From Escherichia phage Ecp_YSF: 53,268 nucleotides of DNA. The stretch lies in sequence record OR327751.1. One strand, written 5' to 3'. This document shows positions 49,549-53,268 of the stretch, one piece after another. Below the pieces are notes generated by a model. That model did no database searches and had not been told where the DNA came from. It saw nothing but the letters and a program-made list of their open reading frames with translations. The position numbers and the translations under genes are program-made. The stretch's first letter is position 1; each line of letters begins with the position of its first letter.

Positions 49549-50223
49549 ATGTCTTATCATGATGATGACAAAGAGATTGCACTATCAACGTGTAAGCAAT
49601 GGCTCAATGATAATGATGCCGTCTATCTTGCCAAGGAAGATGTTATCATTATGTGGGTCCATTTTAATCCAGAATCGAAGCGCGGTGAGTGGCAACGCTA
49701 CAAGATGAAAGAGGCTTGTCGCATAATTAAAGCCACACGCGCTGGCTTCTCTGCTATGAAATACATCAAGCCAGAGATGCTGATGCTTGCTGCACAGGAA
49801 GAAGAACGTGCATATAAGCAAGCTGTTAAATCTCGTTCAACTGTTCCTCCAGAGTTCTTTAATTTGGAGCGCGCTGGACACTTCAACAATTTAGAAATGT
49901 TGACACTGTGCCTGTTGCAAGAATTAGTTGGAAGAGGACAAAACATTGAAGCTGTTTGTCTTGGAGAACTTATGAAAGAGTTGTTCTCGGCAAAGGGCTT
50001 TGCTGTGCCAAATCGAACTTTACGCTGGAAATTGTTGCGAGCAGTCGCTCAAGAAGCTGGTGTAGTTGTTCGTGACAGAACAAACCGACTCACTGTAACT
50101 GGAGTTGGGCGTTTTGTAGCAATCCAGATTGAGGGTTATGACGAATCAATCATCACTGAACTCACTGTCGATGAGACAAAGGATTTAGTAAATAAAACAC
50201 TAGAACGATTCAATAGATACTGA
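49549..50223 (+). CDS. Hypothetical protein (224 aa)
   Basis: ATG-initiated; no recognised motif. Confidence 0.5.
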   Translation: MSYHDDDKEIALSTCKQWLNDNDAVYLAKEDVIIMWVHFNPESKRGEWQRYKMKEACRIIKATRAGFSAMKYIKPEMLMLAAQEEERAYKQAVKSRSTVPPEFFNLERAGHFNNLEMLTLCLLQELVGRGQNIEAVCLGELMKELFSAKGFAVPNRTLRWKLLRAVAQEAGVVVRDRTNRLTVTGVGRFVAIQIEGYDESIITELTVDETKDLVNKTLERFNRY

Positions 50224-50247
50224 GTCGTTTGACGAATCAGAGCAGTT

Positions 50248-50272
50248 CTGAAACATTAGTTGGATGTGGAAA
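50248..50272 (+). promoter_or_regulatory. Conserved phage motif copy i
   Basis: CTGAAACATTAGTTGGATGTGGAAA. Confidence 0.4.
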
Positions 50273-50346
50273 GAGAAAGGCTCTTTAATTTTATCTAAGT
50301 CACGTCATCGTGGCGTGCAAAACTATTCAATATAAGGTATATACAA

Positions 50347-50685
50347 ATGGCTAAGATTGTAACCGTAACTCAGTACGAAGCTAACGATGGTTCCCTGTTC
50401 CTGACCGAAGCAGAGTGTAATGCACACGACTTCAAACTGGAAAACGGTGCTAAAATTGAGAAAGCTGCCGAAGCGTACCTGAACACCGTTGGCGCTATCG
50501 ACCGTTCTCGCTCCATGCAGAAGAACACCATCGAGCAGTTCCTGGCATTCTACCTGCCGTGGGTTGAAGCTGGTGAGCCGGAAGTTGAGCGTACTAAGTT
50601 CGATACTCCGAAAGAAGCCAAAGTTGCTGACGCAAGTGTTGCCGAAGCTGCCGAAGCTGCTGTTGAAGAAGCTCCGGTATTCTAA
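50347..50685 (+). CDS. Hypothetical protein with acidic Ala/Glu-rich C-terminus (112 aa)
   Basis: ATG with AAGGT upstream. Confidence 0.5.
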   Translation: MAKIVTVTQYEANDGSLFLTEAECNAHDFKLENGAKIEKAAEAYLNTVGAIDRSRSMQKNTIEQFLAFYLPWVEAGEPEVERTKFDTPKEAKVADASVAEAAEAAVEEAPVF

Positions 50686-50726
50686 GTTGCCGATGGCAAA
50701 CTTGAGAGACTAAGCTAAATCGATCT

Positions 50727-50757
50727 GGCATGCACTGGGAGATCTGCCAGTGCTGCC
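50727..50757 (+). other. Stable hairpin downstream of last small gene
   Basis: GGCA-t-GCACTGG (8-nt loop) CCAGTGC-t-GCC; no U-tract. Confidence 0.35.
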
Positions 50758-51583
50758 TTGAATCCCATTCCAGAGTGAGTGGGCTTCAATGAGCATTCTT
50801 GTGATTAGAGTTGGGAGGTAGGCCGATGCCCAAGCTCGTGGCCCAGACAAGAGTGTTCATTGAAGTAGTTTTCTGAGTCTTACGACGGGCCTAAACTGCC
50901 TGGAGTTATTGCGACTGTTTTATTCATTTAAAATAAATGCAAATGATTCTGAAATGCGAGTTGCGGCTTAATTAAATTTAAGTCCTCTCCGTGGTCTTCC
51001 AATCCCACGTAACCAAATTTGGCGCATTGTGGCTTCGAGATGTGATTAATAAATCGGAGCAATAATTAATTTGTATTCTGCGATGCAAAGCAGGCTTAAG
51101 TCCTCCAGTGCGCGTGGGGATGTGACAGAGTACAAACTTAATTATGCAGTTGGATATTTCTAGAGGACGGACGAGCACACTGGAATGTCTTCAATTGGTT
51201 TAGTGTGAGAAGCTATGCCAATTTGAAACGTAACTCCTTGGGGAAGTGCTCCTCTGGATTTCCCTCCACACAGGAATCTCAAGCCTGTGGCAGCGACTTC
51301 GAAGCTGCACTGCGTAACCTAATTCACCCTAAAGTGAGTTGCCCTGAGCATGGAAATAAACTGCTCTAACCGATGGTATCTACAAAGGTAGATTAAATCA
51401 GGTTGCCTGTTGGTACTTGGGTTCAACACCTGCTTGCACTCGCAAAGTAGTGCCTCGTACCTGAGATGAAGTGAGTCGGGACCATCAATCCCACGTTATG
51501 TCAAAACACAGTAGGCGACTCACAGATTCTACAAGCCTCGCAGTTCGGGAAAACCTGCGTTATCAAAACCCCCCCCTCAATTT

Positions 51584-51676
51584 GGACGAGTAGCTCAGAA
51601 GGTCTGCTCCAGAGCTTAGTCAGGTAGAGCAATCTGTTCGACAGATGTGTCGTTGGTTCGAATCCAACCTCGTCCA
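51584..51676 (+). tRNA. tRNA-like gene, possibly type II (Leu-CAG-like), with atypical D region; CCA encoded at 51677-51679
   Basis: Acceptor GGACGAG / CTCGTCC; T-arm GTTGG-TTCGAAT-CCAAC; candidate anticodon arm 51614-51630 with loop GTCAGGT; variable-arm hairpin ATCTG-TTCGA-CAGAT; D region does not fold canonically by hand. Confidence 0.45.
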
Positions 51677-51706
51677 CCAACTCTCAATAATAAACATGGA
51701 GTCCTT

Positions 51707-51847
51707 ATGGACATTGATGCACTAGACAATTTGGACTTCGGTGCTGCCGAAGAAGCAATTGAAGAACTCAAGAAAAAGCAGGACGAAGAAGCAATCGTTC
51801 CTGGTGCTGGCGATAACGACTGCTCAAGTGGTGCGTGCGCCATCTAA
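51707..51847 (+). CDS. Small acidic protein (46 aa)
   Basis: RBS GGAG before ATG 51707. Confidence 0.35.
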   Translation: MDIDALDNLDFGAAEEAIEELKKKQDEEAIVPGAGDNDCSSGACAI

Positions 51848-51855
51848 GGTGATTT

Positions 51856-52092
51856 ATGCAACAGCTTAAATCAATAATTCTTGGCGTCCTGACTGCATTT
51901 GGTATTATCATTGCAGTGTTCCTCAAAGGCAAAAGCTCAGGCAAAGCCGAGGAGCGTCAGGAAGCCACAGAGAAGCAACTAGATTCATTAAAAGAATCTA
52001 TCGAGATTAAATCGCATGTTCAGAAAGAAGTGTCTAGCAGTTCTGATAGCAATGTCGATAGTGAGTTGCTCTCAAAGTGGGTTCGTAAGTGA
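51856..52092 (+). CDS. Small membrane protein, i-spanin-like topology
   Basis: N-terminal TM segment IILGVLTAFGIIIAVFL followed by charged helical region. Confidence 0.4.
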   Translation: MQQLKSIILGVLTAFGIIIAVFLKGKSSGKAEERQEATEKQLDSLKESIEIKSHVQKEVSSSSDSNVDSELLSKWVRK

Positions 52093-52225
52093 TTATTGCT
52101 TAATTGCACAACCAATCTATTTGGATGTTGCAGAAGTGAAAATCTTATCACGCGAAACCAAAACACAGATTTTAGTCCACAATGAAACGTGGGCACAAAA
52201 GTGTTCGAAACTTACCCGACAGTGA
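52016..52225 (+). CDS. Putative lipoprotein, o-spanin-like, overlapping the upstream gene in another frame
   Basis: MFRKKCLAVLIAMSIVSC has lipobox-like IVSC; ORF overlaps 3' end of 51856-52092. Confidence 0.3.
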   Translation: MFRKKCLAVLIAMSIVSCSQSGFVSDYCLIAQPIYLDVAEVKILSRETKTQILVHNETWAQKCSKLTRQ

Positions 52226-52546
52226 GTGAACATGGCCTAGCTAGTTGGTGGTGTAAAGACTGACCAAGGTGACGACAGCCAAAGTCGAGGGAGTGCGCGA
52301 CTTTAAATAACGAGACTCTAGCCACTTGTGGTATGGCAGGTGTAACTCCTGCAATTGCTCTGGGCATAACAATTAAAATTGCTGCCTCGTATTGAACGCG
52401 AGAAAGTTCAGGTGGTCACTTCCTAGAACAGTGTCCGAGAACACACTCGCCAAAGTGCTTGAGAACGTTAGCTCTGTCTTGCCAGCATTAATGGCACGTT
52501 GGCCGCGTAAAGGCCGCAACCTCAATCATATATAAGGTAGTCTTCT

Positions 52547-52747: not shown

Positions 52748-52789
52748 TCATCACAGCGTCTGGCCAACGTATCGGCCGCCAAATTCAAT

Positions 52790-52857
52790 GGGATTTTCGT
52801 ATGTACGGGCTTGACCGTGGTGAAACGACCTGACTGGTTCGATTCCAGTGAATCCCA
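52790..52857 (+). ncRNA. tRNA-like acceptor/T-arm element
   Basis: GGGATTT pairs with GAATCCC; T-arm ACTGG-TTCGATT-CCAGT; intervening region does not form a cloverleaf by hand. Confidence 0.3.
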
Positions 52858-53127
52858 CGAACAATGGATTCGTAGAGTTAATTAAACCTGCACGATGGGA
52901 TAGGGATGAAGCATCCGAGGCCGACTGTGTAATTGTGAACTTATCGTTCACCGAATCCACCAAATACCCGGGAGAAAGTGCTGTGGACGATATTGTATCG
53001 TAGGTGGTCGCATTCCACCCTCCCAACTCTTACCAAACAGTTATGCCTCTGTTCAAAAGGCTCAAGAGAGCGTCTGGCATACCGTAGCGATACGGCTTAG
53101 TTGCGCTGATTGTGTTGTGCAGAAAGA

Positions 53128-53268
53128 AAGTTCAGGCTTTCGTTTGGGTTACTCCTCATCCCGAAGTTAGCTGGATTCAAAATCCAGACTATGTTCCTAT
53201 ACACATGAAATATGCAAGTCGAGGGTTCTTAATGTTCAAACATGATGCGAGCATTGAGCGGGTTTATA
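53128..53268. repeat. Right copy of direct terminal repeat; identical to 1-141
   Basis: Exact 141-nt identity with window start. Confidence 0.9.

Follow-up and report, generated by a model that had tools for sequence, protein, structure and literature searches.

A tmRNA-like RNA unit with an arm antisense to host tmRNA in an ORF-poor region of Escherichia phage Ecp_YSF

What does a phage keep in a stretch of DNA that hardly codes for protein? The question is raised by positions 50686-51583 of Escherichia phage Ecp_YSF (sequence record OR327751.1), of which the whole stretch of 53,268 nucleotides (nt) was analysed and is called the window here. As a sequence-only reading of this DNA had stated, the region holds no open reading frame (ORF) of 60 or more amino acids (aa) on the + strand; its + strand ORFs are 30, 54 and 40 aa long, and the sole ORF of at least 60 aa is a 66-aa frame with a GTG start on the - strand. 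No PHROG family is matched by any of these ORFs. That reading had proposed either a candidate non-coding RNA locus or packaging and replication signals. We find a non-coding RNA locus here, and no site of replication or packaging: a structured RNA supported by covariation lies at 50864-51060, flanked by long hairpins, and it is very probably a gene derived from transfer-messenger RNA (tmRNA). This unit is a chimeric tmRNA derivative, composed of a 5' arm antisense to host tmRNA, a tag reading frame of its own, a stop-codon helix and two pseudoknots, and lacking the alanine-accepting domain. Neither the tag frame nor the antisense relation had been mentioned in the sequence-only reading. The anatomy of the unit, its RNA structure, the codon-level constraint on its tag, the lack of a tRNA-like domain, the antisense relation to Escherichia coli ssrA and the wide distribution are all shown here.

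The tmRNA-like unit and its tag frame

Scans of the region against Rfam at curated thresholds gave nothing, and the lead came from a permissive Rfam scan, which returned two weak hits to permuted tmRNA models at 50864-51026; sub-threshold hits to Rfam tmRNA models were found at the same place in six phages. The best match in sequence and structure was to the betaproteobacterial two-piece tmRNA model (RF01850), which aligns from the pre-tag region through the first of the two pseudoknots (PK2) with E = 3.5e-5. Rfam thresholds were not reached, the best scores being 20.5 bits for Ecp_YSF and 30.7 bits for phage PGN829.1 as compared to gathering scores of 47-84 (RF00023, RF01849-51, RF04321). A covariance model built on 64 homologues (R1) aligned with Ecp_YSF at 50864-51083, scoring 83.3 bits (E = 8e-20), and detected exactly one full-length unit per phage, including the one copy in Ecp_YSF. 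Host ssrA matched the same model at the tag region only, with 16 bits. The parts of the unit in Ecp_YSF are the following.

50864..51060, + strand: tmRNA-like unit in full, from the antisense arm over the tag template to both pseudoknots; within the R1 match
50865..50879, + strand: antisense block 1 (GTAGTTTTC..GTC), complementary to E. coli ssrA nt 96-107, that is, tag codons 3-6 (GACGAAAACTAC)
50882..50906, + strand: phage-internal hairpin between the antisense blocks, which would lie at a three-way junction of the predicted complex; absent in PO103-1 and PYps23T
50909..50924, + strand: antisense block 2 (TTGCGACTGTTTTATT), complementary to ssrA nt 81-93 in the cofold
50934..50938, + strand: frame-setting motif UAAAU, with U-5, A-4, A-3 and U-1 invariant in the 64 homologues
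50939..50971, + strand: tag reading frame ANDSEMRVAA*, from GCA to TAA, of tmRNA type
50958..50989, + strand: stop-codon helix (P5-like), pairing 50958-50960 with 50987-50989 and 50965-50971 with 50978-50984, the UAA lying in the stem
50990..51022, + strand: pseudoknot PK2, with stem 1 at 50990-50994/51005-51009 and loop 50999-51002 (CCAA) paired with 51019-51022 (TTGG)
51025..51060, + strand: pseudoknot PK3, with stem 1 at 51025-51028/51039-51042, stem 2 at 51031-51038/51054-51060 and the conserved loop TGATTAATAAA

The tag frame of Ecp_YSF reads GCA AAT GAT TCT GAA ATG CGA GTT GCG GCT TAA and encodes ANDSEMRVAA*, which closely parallels ANDENYALAA, the SsrA tag of E. coli. In unrelated phage families, every homologue has a frame of 10 codons, AND/ANE...A(A/V)A*, directly after AUAAAU. 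Across the 30 distinct tag sequences, mean entropy is 0.61, 0.52 and 1.03 at codon positions 1, 2 and 3, and synonymous codon differences number 658 in the tag frame as compared to 49 and 123 when either of the other frames is read. The four GCN codons are all represented at the last tag position, the length is always 10 codons, and the stop codon is TAA, rarely TAG, or TGA (in locus L033). Sabourvirus 4HA13 encodes a peptide identical to the Ecp_YSF tag with 4 synonymous changes. The tag frame is under coding selection at the codon level. Neither an in-frame start codon nor an obvious Shine-Dalgarno sequence is present in the 50 nt upstream of the Ecp_YSF tag. The main lineages have an in-frame UAG 24 nt upstream of the tag, and by inspection no in-frame AUG, GUG or UUG and no Shine-Dalgarno sequence follows it. 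Immediately before the frame, U-5 and A-4 are invariant in 64/64 units, as are U-1 and A-3 (columns T71, A72, A73 and T75 of the alignment of these units, A1). The first two correspond to U85/A86 at positions -5/-4 in E. coli ssrA, which are the bases that set the frame in E. coli tmRNA. To our knowledge, trans-translation is the sole known way of decoding such a frame.

The RNA structure was derived by hand and tested on alignment A1, whose 64 units are at most 94% identical. In this alignment, 90.4% of cells are paired, compared to 33-49% in controls with the pairing partners slid, and the covariation score is 0.232, compared to 0.03-0.08 for the slid controls; changes on both sides are seen in 24/40 pairs. 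In the stop-codon helix (P5a), pairing reaches 96% and each of the 4 pairs shows compensatory changes; one G:C pair has become A:U by a double change within Carltongylesvirus. Stem 1 of PK2 is 98.4% paired, and stem 2 is paired in 64/64 units (100%) with compensatory changes at all 4 pairs, the loop sequences CCGA, CCAG, CCAA or UCGA pairing with downstream UCGG, CUGG, UUGG or UCGA. PK3 stem 1 is 98.8% paired (one of its pairs is CG in 44 units, UA in 11 and GC in 8) and carries the conserved loop UGAUUAAUAA. At the position of tmRNA pseudoknot PK1, most lineages form an extended hairpin (CUUUGCGG/CCACAAAG) that is 94% paired with few compensatory changes, and Ecp_YSF folds differently there. 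The hairpin after the tag had also been considered as a T arm, which was ruled out as its loop pairs downstream to form PK2. Covariance analysis with homologous phages, which the sequence-only reading had suggested as a check, supports the structure of the unit across the 64 homologues.

What the unit does not have is an acceptor stem, a G3:U70 pair, a T arm or a CCA end, and the chargeable tRNA-like domain that defines tmRNA is missing from it. ARAGORN detected no tRNA or tmRNA anywhere in the Ecp_YSF sequence, an Rfam scan by E-value revealed no tRNA-like domain in the rest of the genome, and a T-arm pattern scan of the whole sequence yielded no alanine-type domain. In five other phages, ARAGORN and Rfam likewise returned no tRNA-like domain within 1.5 kb of the unit. 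Between phage families we found no partner element that is conserved; the unit alone is.

The antisense arm and a possible host-phage tmRNA

The 5' arm begins with the nearly invariant motif (U)AGUUUUCGU(C), the exact complement of ssrA tag codons 3-6 (GACGAAAACUAC), and GTTTTCG is almost invariant across the 64 homologues. The longest perfect complement to E. coli ssrA, 8-12 nt in length, falls at nt 96-108 in 62/64 units; when arms were shuffled, a perfect run of at least 10 was reached in 1.2% of trials. The arms are, moreover, collinear with the reverse complement of ssrA 68-106, scoring 33-44 compared to 15 +/- 2.5 for shuffles, which corresponds to z scores of 7.5-11.7 for the arms of T1-like, lambdoid, P1-like and Ackermannviridae units. 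As an example, the arm of a lambdoid unit (L011), TAGTTTTCGTC[AGA]GTTGGCGAC-----TTTGCGGGTTTTTA, matches this reverse complement. Alignments of the arms with sense ssrA stayed at noise level. We had considered the 5' motif as a homologue of the tmRNA D-loop region (GGAUUCGAC), and this candidate was rejected, the arms aligning to antisense and not to sense ssrA. Predicted duplexes between arm and host RNA have a mean free energy of -34.7 kcal/mol, compared to -17.3 kcal/mol when the arm pairs with the unit's own template; in 64/64 units, the duplex with host RNA has the higher stability.

In Ecp_YSF, the arm is split by the phage-internal hairpin. When cofolded with ssrA nt 45-125, it is predicted to form 25 intermolecular pairs, located as follows.

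50865-50873: predicted to pair with ssrA 99-107
50877-50879: predicted to pair with ssrA 96-98
50909-50921: predicted to pair with ssrA 81-93 (13 predicted pairs)

Pairing by hand suggests that block 2 possibly extends to ssrA nt 78, and U85/A86, the GUC triplet and the resume codon GCA all fall within its span. The cofold as a whole covers ssrA 81-107, and with it U85/A86, the resume codon and codons 1-6; the predicted free energy of the complex is -46.4 kcal/mol as compared to -29.5 kcal/mol for the two RNAs apart. PO103-1 and PYps23T use another subset of the same host ssrA segment. Extended and conserved complementarity to a defined target, better than to the RNA's own sequence, is the hallmark of a trans-acting antisense RNA, and in these predictions the arm displays it. 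We consider it probable that the unit targets host tmRNA by pairing.

How might such a unit act? To a mechanism in which pairing of the unit hides the tag template of host tmRNA and a phage template is offered in its place, we assign a probability of about 0.5. The free 5' arm would pair with the single-stranded template region of host tmRNA, thereby masking the host tag template, and this pairing would keep the host tRNA-like domain and SmpB next to the frame-setting motif and tag frame of the phage RNA. The outcome would be a two-piece tmRNA assembled from host and phage RNA. On ribosomes rescued by host Ala-tmRNA, translation would then continue in the phage frame, attaching the tag of the phage, and would end at its stop codon. 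Such a mechanism would account for the antisense arm, the missing tRNA-like domain, the codon constraint, the invariant U-5/A-4 and the retention of stop-codon helix and pseudoknots. That masking can block the action of tmRNA has a precedent in synthetic oligonucleotides complementary to it (PMC3384345). What we infer is that the unit is transcribed and processed, that it pairs in vivo and that its tag is decoded. That the unit's own tag is decoded through the host tRNA-like domain is a proposition we would put just short of even chances. Still more tentatively, all products of trans-translation made during infection would receive the phage tag (ANDSEMRVAA, ANDDVVLMAA, ANEEMYLAVA or others), not ANDENYALAA.

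Several points weigh against this mechanism. The whole case for the function of the unit is computational, and we know of no precedent for a tag template that is joined to tmRNA by base pairing at the template alone. The duplex of ~30 base pairs (bp) might be cut by RNase III, and the phage template would then lose its link to the host tRNA-like domain. In the lineage of Ecp_YSF the arm is interrupted and its alignment reaches a z score of only 2.4, although the cofold still pairs 25/27 host bases. When 24-nt arms were tested against the whole of ssrA, the energies were weak (-21.2 compared to -18.5 +/- 2.7 kcal/mol for shuffles), and this test was replaced by those on exact runs, on alignment and on pairing in cis versus trans. 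The arm segment UUUGCGG is also paired in a hairpin in cis and may be what is left of PK1. Finally, the hosts found all belong to the Enterobacterales and presumably share the same ssrA segment, so that covariation between arm and host is not informative, and the sole phage labelled as a Vibrio phage carries the same enterobacterial arm.

The main rival to a substituted template is a purely inhibitory antisense RNA, the arm of which would block SsrA or trigger its cleavage, for instance by RNase III, and thus shut down host trans-translation; the tag frame and pseudoknots would then go undecoded and would only help the RNA to fold or persist, or distract tmRNA-binding factors as a decoy. Both explanations share the antisense relation, the unit has no tRNA-like domain, and the predicted duplex of ~25-33 bp is long enough for a substrate of RNase III. 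Synthetic oligonucleotides complementary to tmRNA, moreover, suffice to block it in vitro, suppressing tmRNA-dependent release in cell-free systems (PMC3384345). This explanation covers the arm but not the selection on the tag, as seen in the third-position variation, the 658 versus 49 and 123 synonymous differences, the fixed 10 codons and the terminal Ala followed by a stop. It likewise leaves the invariant U-5/A-4 and the strong covariation of the stop-codon helix and both pseudoknots unexplained, and a masked host template with no substitute stop codon would, as we reason, trap ribosomes on tmRNA. We therefore regard pure inhibition as unlikely, if well worth keeping in view.

Neighbouring elements, expression and spread of the unit

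The Ecp_YSF genome is phiEcoM-GJ1-like (Chaseviridae, Carltongylesvirus), and 50686-51583 shares 91-98% identity with E. coli, Shigella and Yersinia phages of the phiEcoM-GJ1 group. Its counterpart in phiEcoM-GJ1 (GJ1) is found at 13.56-14.46 kb, with gp29 on one side and, on the other, a feature annotated as 'tRNA-Arg, may contain an intron'. In Ecp_YSF, the corresponding neighbour had been taken for a tRNA-like gene, a likeness that is weak: an Rfam tRNA match exists, but it stays under the gathering score and ARAGORN calls no tRNA there.

51584..51680, + strand: tRNA-like element with a 22-nt D-arm insertion; Rfam tRNA 27.9 bits (cut-off 29), ARAGORN negative

By eye, this element has A3-U70, a 5-nt 'anticodon' loop provided that the whole stem pairs, and a CCA end. 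Among its relatives the loop changes from TTCGA to TAAGA, and the 3' CCA becomes CCC or is lost. The GJ1 copy, annotated as tRNA-Arg, is called tRNA-Leu by ARAGORN. We conclude that the element is probably structural or involved in processing rather than a decoding tRNA.

These neighbours bear on a further explanation, in which the unit would be the coding piece of a genuine two-piece phage tmRNA and an as yet unrecognised phage acceptor piece would supply the alanine-accepting end. Candidates for such a piece are the element at 51584-51680 and the T-arm-bearing modules beside the unit in other phages. The resemblance of the unit to the betaproteobacterial two-piece model speaks for this idea, as do the T-arm-like hairpins close to units in several phages (in PGN829.1 a T arm near the unit is followed by ..GUUGUG-ACCA) and, in Ecp_YSF, the CCA-ending element together with an acceptor/T-arm-like fold seen by eye at ~52806-52870. 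By inspection, however, no candidate has the G3:U70 pair needed for alanine charging, including the T-arm-like hairpins in the neighbouring modules of some phages, and the candidate acceptor elements are not conserved between phage families, only the unit is. The 'anticodon' of 51584-51680 varies and its CCA is lost among close relatives, and neither ARAGORN nor the Rfam tmRNA models find a tRNA-like domain. The 5' end of the unit, furthermore, has no acceptor strand. In four lineages (ZCKP8, phiEa21-4, L067 and L116), a near-consensus sigma-70 promoter, read by eye, stops just a few bases short of ..GAUAGUUUUCG, so that the RNA would start at that point, with no room for an acceptor strand. 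A two-piece phage tmRNA thus appears improbable.

Long-helix modules found on the flanks of the unit in other phages (CACAACAGGUAAGAGCAYU...AGUGCUCUUUCCGUUGUG) were considered as extended acceptor stems and rejected, their interiors not being conserved and no G3:U70 being seen. Such modules recur on both sides of the unit and beside tRNA genes in lambdoid, T1-like and P1-like loci (L011, L013, L016, L021, L005 and L128); their 5' strand is CACAACAGGTAAGAGCAYT and their 3' strand AGTGCTCTTTCCGTTGTG, and they frame variable inserts, some with T arms. They could act as stems for processing or belong to a family of mobile spacers. The possible fold at 52806-52870 places GGGATTT/GAATCCC around a canonical T arm, ACTGG-TTCGATT-CCAGT, as judged by eye. 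It ends in ..A-CGA, not CCA, and has a 5' part (GGGATTTTCGTATG) similar to the start of the unit in other phages; RNAfold predicts the T arm but pairs GAATCC with a downstream GGATTC, giving no acceptor stem. A weak cyano_tmRNA hit (E = 1.9) falls on the same fold.

For expression of the unit, the relevant features upstream and downstream are these.

50251..50270, + strand: phage-RNA-polymerase promoter (AAACATTAGTTGGATGTGGA), an exact match to the annotated phiEcoM-GJ1 promoter consensus
50732..50753, + strand: perfect 7-bp hairpin after the upstream ORF (50347-50685), a terminator in a relative's record; without a U tract
50784..50865, + strand: long hairpin with a 19-20 bp stem, ending exactly at the start of the unit; z = -5.07, inverted repeat I1
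51059..51149, + strand: long hairpin right after the unit, with arms at ~51059-51081/51128-51149; inverted repeat I3
51150..51583, + strand: lineage-specific structured spacers, with a helix at ~51160-51260 and hairpins at 51269-51308 and 51378-51398

No further match to the phage promoter occurs between 50265 and the end of the sequence, and neither a sigma-70-like promoter nor an intrinsic terminator was found in 50200-51800. As the last phage promoter lies at 50251 and the region has no sigma-70-like promoter or terminator, the unit is probably excised from a read-through transcript; judged from sequence, the non-coding RNA region would be transcribed by read-through from this promoter and then processed. 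The strongest hairpin of the region, absent from the sequence-only reading, has 19-20 bp between 50784-50802 and 50847-50865. In GJ1 and SKA49 the upstream cassette differs in sequence, but it too is a long inverted repeat, and its boundaries are unchanged (..ATTGAAG|TAGTTTTC). A cassette that is new in sequence but keeps its shape and boundaries fits a processing stem, and the hairpin is a candidate for an RNase III-type stem that would release the 5' end of the unit. On the 3' side, the hairpin at 51059-51149 is a candidate for the corresponding processing stem; its interior looks as if the end of the tag had been copied in part and then decayed (..GCAAAGCAGGCTTAAGTCCTC..).

The short hairpins that had already been pointed out are present: GCACTGG at 50732-50738 with CCAGTGC at 50747-50753, CACAGG at 51269 with CCTGTG at 51284, and GCAGC at 51290 with GCTGC at 51304. 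Two words had also been said to occur twice each. This is correct for CAATCCCACGT (51000 and 51486), whereas CTTAAGTCCTC occurs once only; the other exact repeat is the 10-mer TTAAGTCCTC (50978 and 51096). By our own estimate, ~0.1 repeated 11-mers would be expected by chance in 900 bp. Both CAATCCCACGT and TTAAGTCCTC lie within the tmRNA-like unit and recur in what appear to be its decayed partial copies, which explain the repeats. One such copy, at 51084-51127, reads GCA AAG CAG GCT TAA (AKQA*) followed by TTAAGTCCTC, and a second, PK2-like one at 51475-51520 repeats the PK2 core CAATCCCACGT.

In the downstream spacers, hairpin 51378-51398 shows compensatory changes in PO103-1. The stretch 51144-51325 is absent from phage SA91KD (L002) and is therefore dispensable, and the GJ1 'gp30' ORF is for the same reason not conserved; SA91KD carries an insert of ~190-250 nt between the upstream hairpin and the unit, with duplicated ATTGAAGT ends. 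In Mangalitsa (L134), a T4 imm-like superinfection-immunity gene (1132-1386) occupies the spacer beside the unit. In 4HA13 (L135), an HNH endonuclease gene (1723-2154) stands right after PK3 and is followed at 2136-2188 by a duplicated PK3 fragment of another lineage's type, and in the Pel53 record an HNH gene likewise lies under the unit match. Homing endonucleases may, as these cases hint, exploit the conserved unit or help to spread it. The spacers on either side of it are hot spots for insertion.

The unit is widespread. A BLAST search with 50911-51061 matched many unrelated phages, always in unannotated DNA, as exemplified by the following.

Ackermannviridae, PH4: tag ANDSEVLMAA
Schitoviridae, PGN829.1: tag ANDDVILMAA
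T1-like siphovirus, ZCKP8: tag ANEEMYLAVA
Ounavirinae, phiEa21-4 (in a 417-nt gap inside a tRNA gene array): tag ANDAQFLAVA
Chaseviridae, Y2: tag ANDNEMRAAA

A pattern scan of IMG/VR yielded 120 loci, ~100 of them real units with a tag at fixed distance. The unit occurs in 804/50,697 phage records, among them Ackermannviridae, Felix O1-like, T1-like, G7C-like, P1/P7 and Chaseviridae phages, and is annotated as RNA in 0/60 listed records. It is also present in 656/5426 complete E. coli genomes, with 554 places on plasmids; the E. coli plasmids listed measure ~70-110 kb, and the one inspected is P1-like and has the unit between dmt and tRNA-Asn, which we take to be its position in P1. In lambdoid prophages, the sequence places it just downstream of Q, the late promoter and its terminator. 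Other settings are tRNA arrays, positions behind a late-leader terminator and positions behind a promoter of its own. A scan of GTDB species representatives returned 6 real units, all in Enterobacterales, and 23 chance hits. One record, PP952070.1 ('Staphylococcus phage Pel53', with an S. hyicus label), is 91% identical to this E. coli phage region, and its host label is probably wrong or the sample contaminated.

Against this background, the notion of a decaying, non-functional tmRNA fragment, or of a neutral spacer serving only as an insertion hot spot, is very hard to maintain. The mosaic, indel-rich surroundings (the deletion and insertion in SA91KD, the imm gene of Mangalitsa, the HNH gene of 4HA13) and the partial decayed copies nearby are what it would predict, but the unit itself is intact in the 804 phage records of several families and the 656 E. 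coli genomes, is present in exactly one full-length copy per phage, and displays compensatory base changes as well as codon-level constraint.

We give even less credence to cis-acting DNA signals, such as a replication origin or packaging site, or to small protein genes. Such readings could appeal to a region that is ORF-poor, rich in hairpins and close to the overlap of the assembly ends, and to the short hypothetical proteins annotated here in some GenBank records. Yet iterons, an AT-rich block and a change in GC skew are absent, the core recurs at very different positions in unrelated families, and the pattern of conservation is that of RNA helices. The annotated ORFs differ among relatives, are deleted in SA91KD and, together with GJ1 'gp30', match no PHROG family. 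The 'terminal repeat' near which the region had been placed is an exact direct repeat of 141 bp, bases 1-141 being equal to 53128-53268 (unique genome length 53,127 bp), and is most likely the assembly overlap of a circularly permuted or terminally redundant genome. Because the Ecp_YSF sequence was opened at a different point than that of GJ1, where the region is internal, and because the ends overlap by 141 bp, this nearness is without biological meaning.

Further downstream, just after the tRNA-like element, 51856-52092 and 52016-52225 hold overlapping Rz-like and Rz1-like spanin ORFs; the Rz1-like ORF begins MFRKKCLAVLIAMSIVSCSQ, a lipoprotein-type signal, and some relatives' records call the first ORF 'endolysin'. 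After the spanin genes follows a second, larger ORF-poor mosaic stretch (52226-52546 and 52748-53127, running into 1-584), which matches Chaseviridae only, in many short pieces, and corresponds approximately to the gp31-gp32 gap of ~1.07 kb in GJ1.

Relation to known systems and meaning

Like one-piece tmRNA (RF00023), the unit has a GCA resume codon after an A-rich linker with U/A frame-setting bases, a 10-codon AND...AA tag, a stop codon in a helix and downstream pseudoknots. It differs from one-piece tmRNA (363 nt) in being ~200 nt long, with two clear pseudoknots only and no tRNA-like domain, and from any tmRNA in having a 5' arm antisense to host tmRNA. With two-piece tmRNA (RF01850, RF04321), it would share a template on an RNA that is separate from the acceptor end and base-paired to it, as we propose for the unit; the RF01850 consensus, by our own reading, translates to something near ANDE.F..AA and resembles the phage tags. 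The coding piece of natural two-piece tmRNA starts with the acceptor 5' strand and pairs with the acceptor piece of the same gene (PMC11915505). The unit, in contrast, has neither acceptor strand nor acceptor piece, and its proposed partner is the complete host tmRNA, bound at the template region. A further comparison is offered by mycobacteriophage DS6A, for which two reports describe a 'tmRNA' that consists of the tRNA-like domain only and is thought to interfere with host trans-translation (PMC4131195, PMC11915505). It is the mirror image of the unit: DS6A has a tRNA-like domain and no tag frame, the unit has the template and pseudoknot half with an antisense arm.

Small phage RNAs that act on RNA by base pairing include lambda OOP, c4 of P1/P7 and AgvB/AsxR of enterohaemorrhagic E. 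coli (EHEC) prophages, and c4 is likewise cut out of a longer transcript. As far as we know, their targets are mRNAs or small RNAs and never tmRNA, and none of them carries a translatable tmRNA-type template. The anti-ssrA oligonucleotides employed in ribosome display and cell-free translation are, like the phage arms, complementary to the E. coli tag-template region, and the classic one presumably contains ..GTAGTTTTCGTCGTTTGCGAC.., which matches the phage arm sequence. They are artificial DNA reagents with no replacement template, unlike the unit.

In two censuses searched for phage entries, one of 543 bacterial viruses from 2014 (PMC4131195) and one of RefSeq viruses from 2025 (PMC11915505), the only phage entries for tmRNA are mycobacteriophages and Bacillus phage G. 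Full-text literature searches returned no description of a comparable element and none of six tag peptides. Since the unit lacks the tRNA-like domain by which tmRNA is defined, and since its antisense arm is part of no described form of tmRNA, it appears from its sequence to be a new kind of element with a proposed function.

The tmRNA-SmpB system is the main ribosome-rescue system of bacteria and influences the growth of several phages. The presence of the element in hundreds of enteric phages suggests that these phages block or re-programme ribosome rescue. Being common yet unannotated, the unit explains large ORF-free stretches in these genomes and flags spurious 'hypothetical proteins', and many of the phages carrying it are candidates for therapy. 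If the proposed mechanism is true, phages directly attack or re-programme tmRNA-SmpB by means of an antisense arm and a substitute tag template. In that case, a virus would for the first time be seen to re-code a quality-control tag of its host, and a tmRNA template to be provided in trans. The unit offers a testable model for such a template in trans, and it may provide a natural tool for switching degradation tags.

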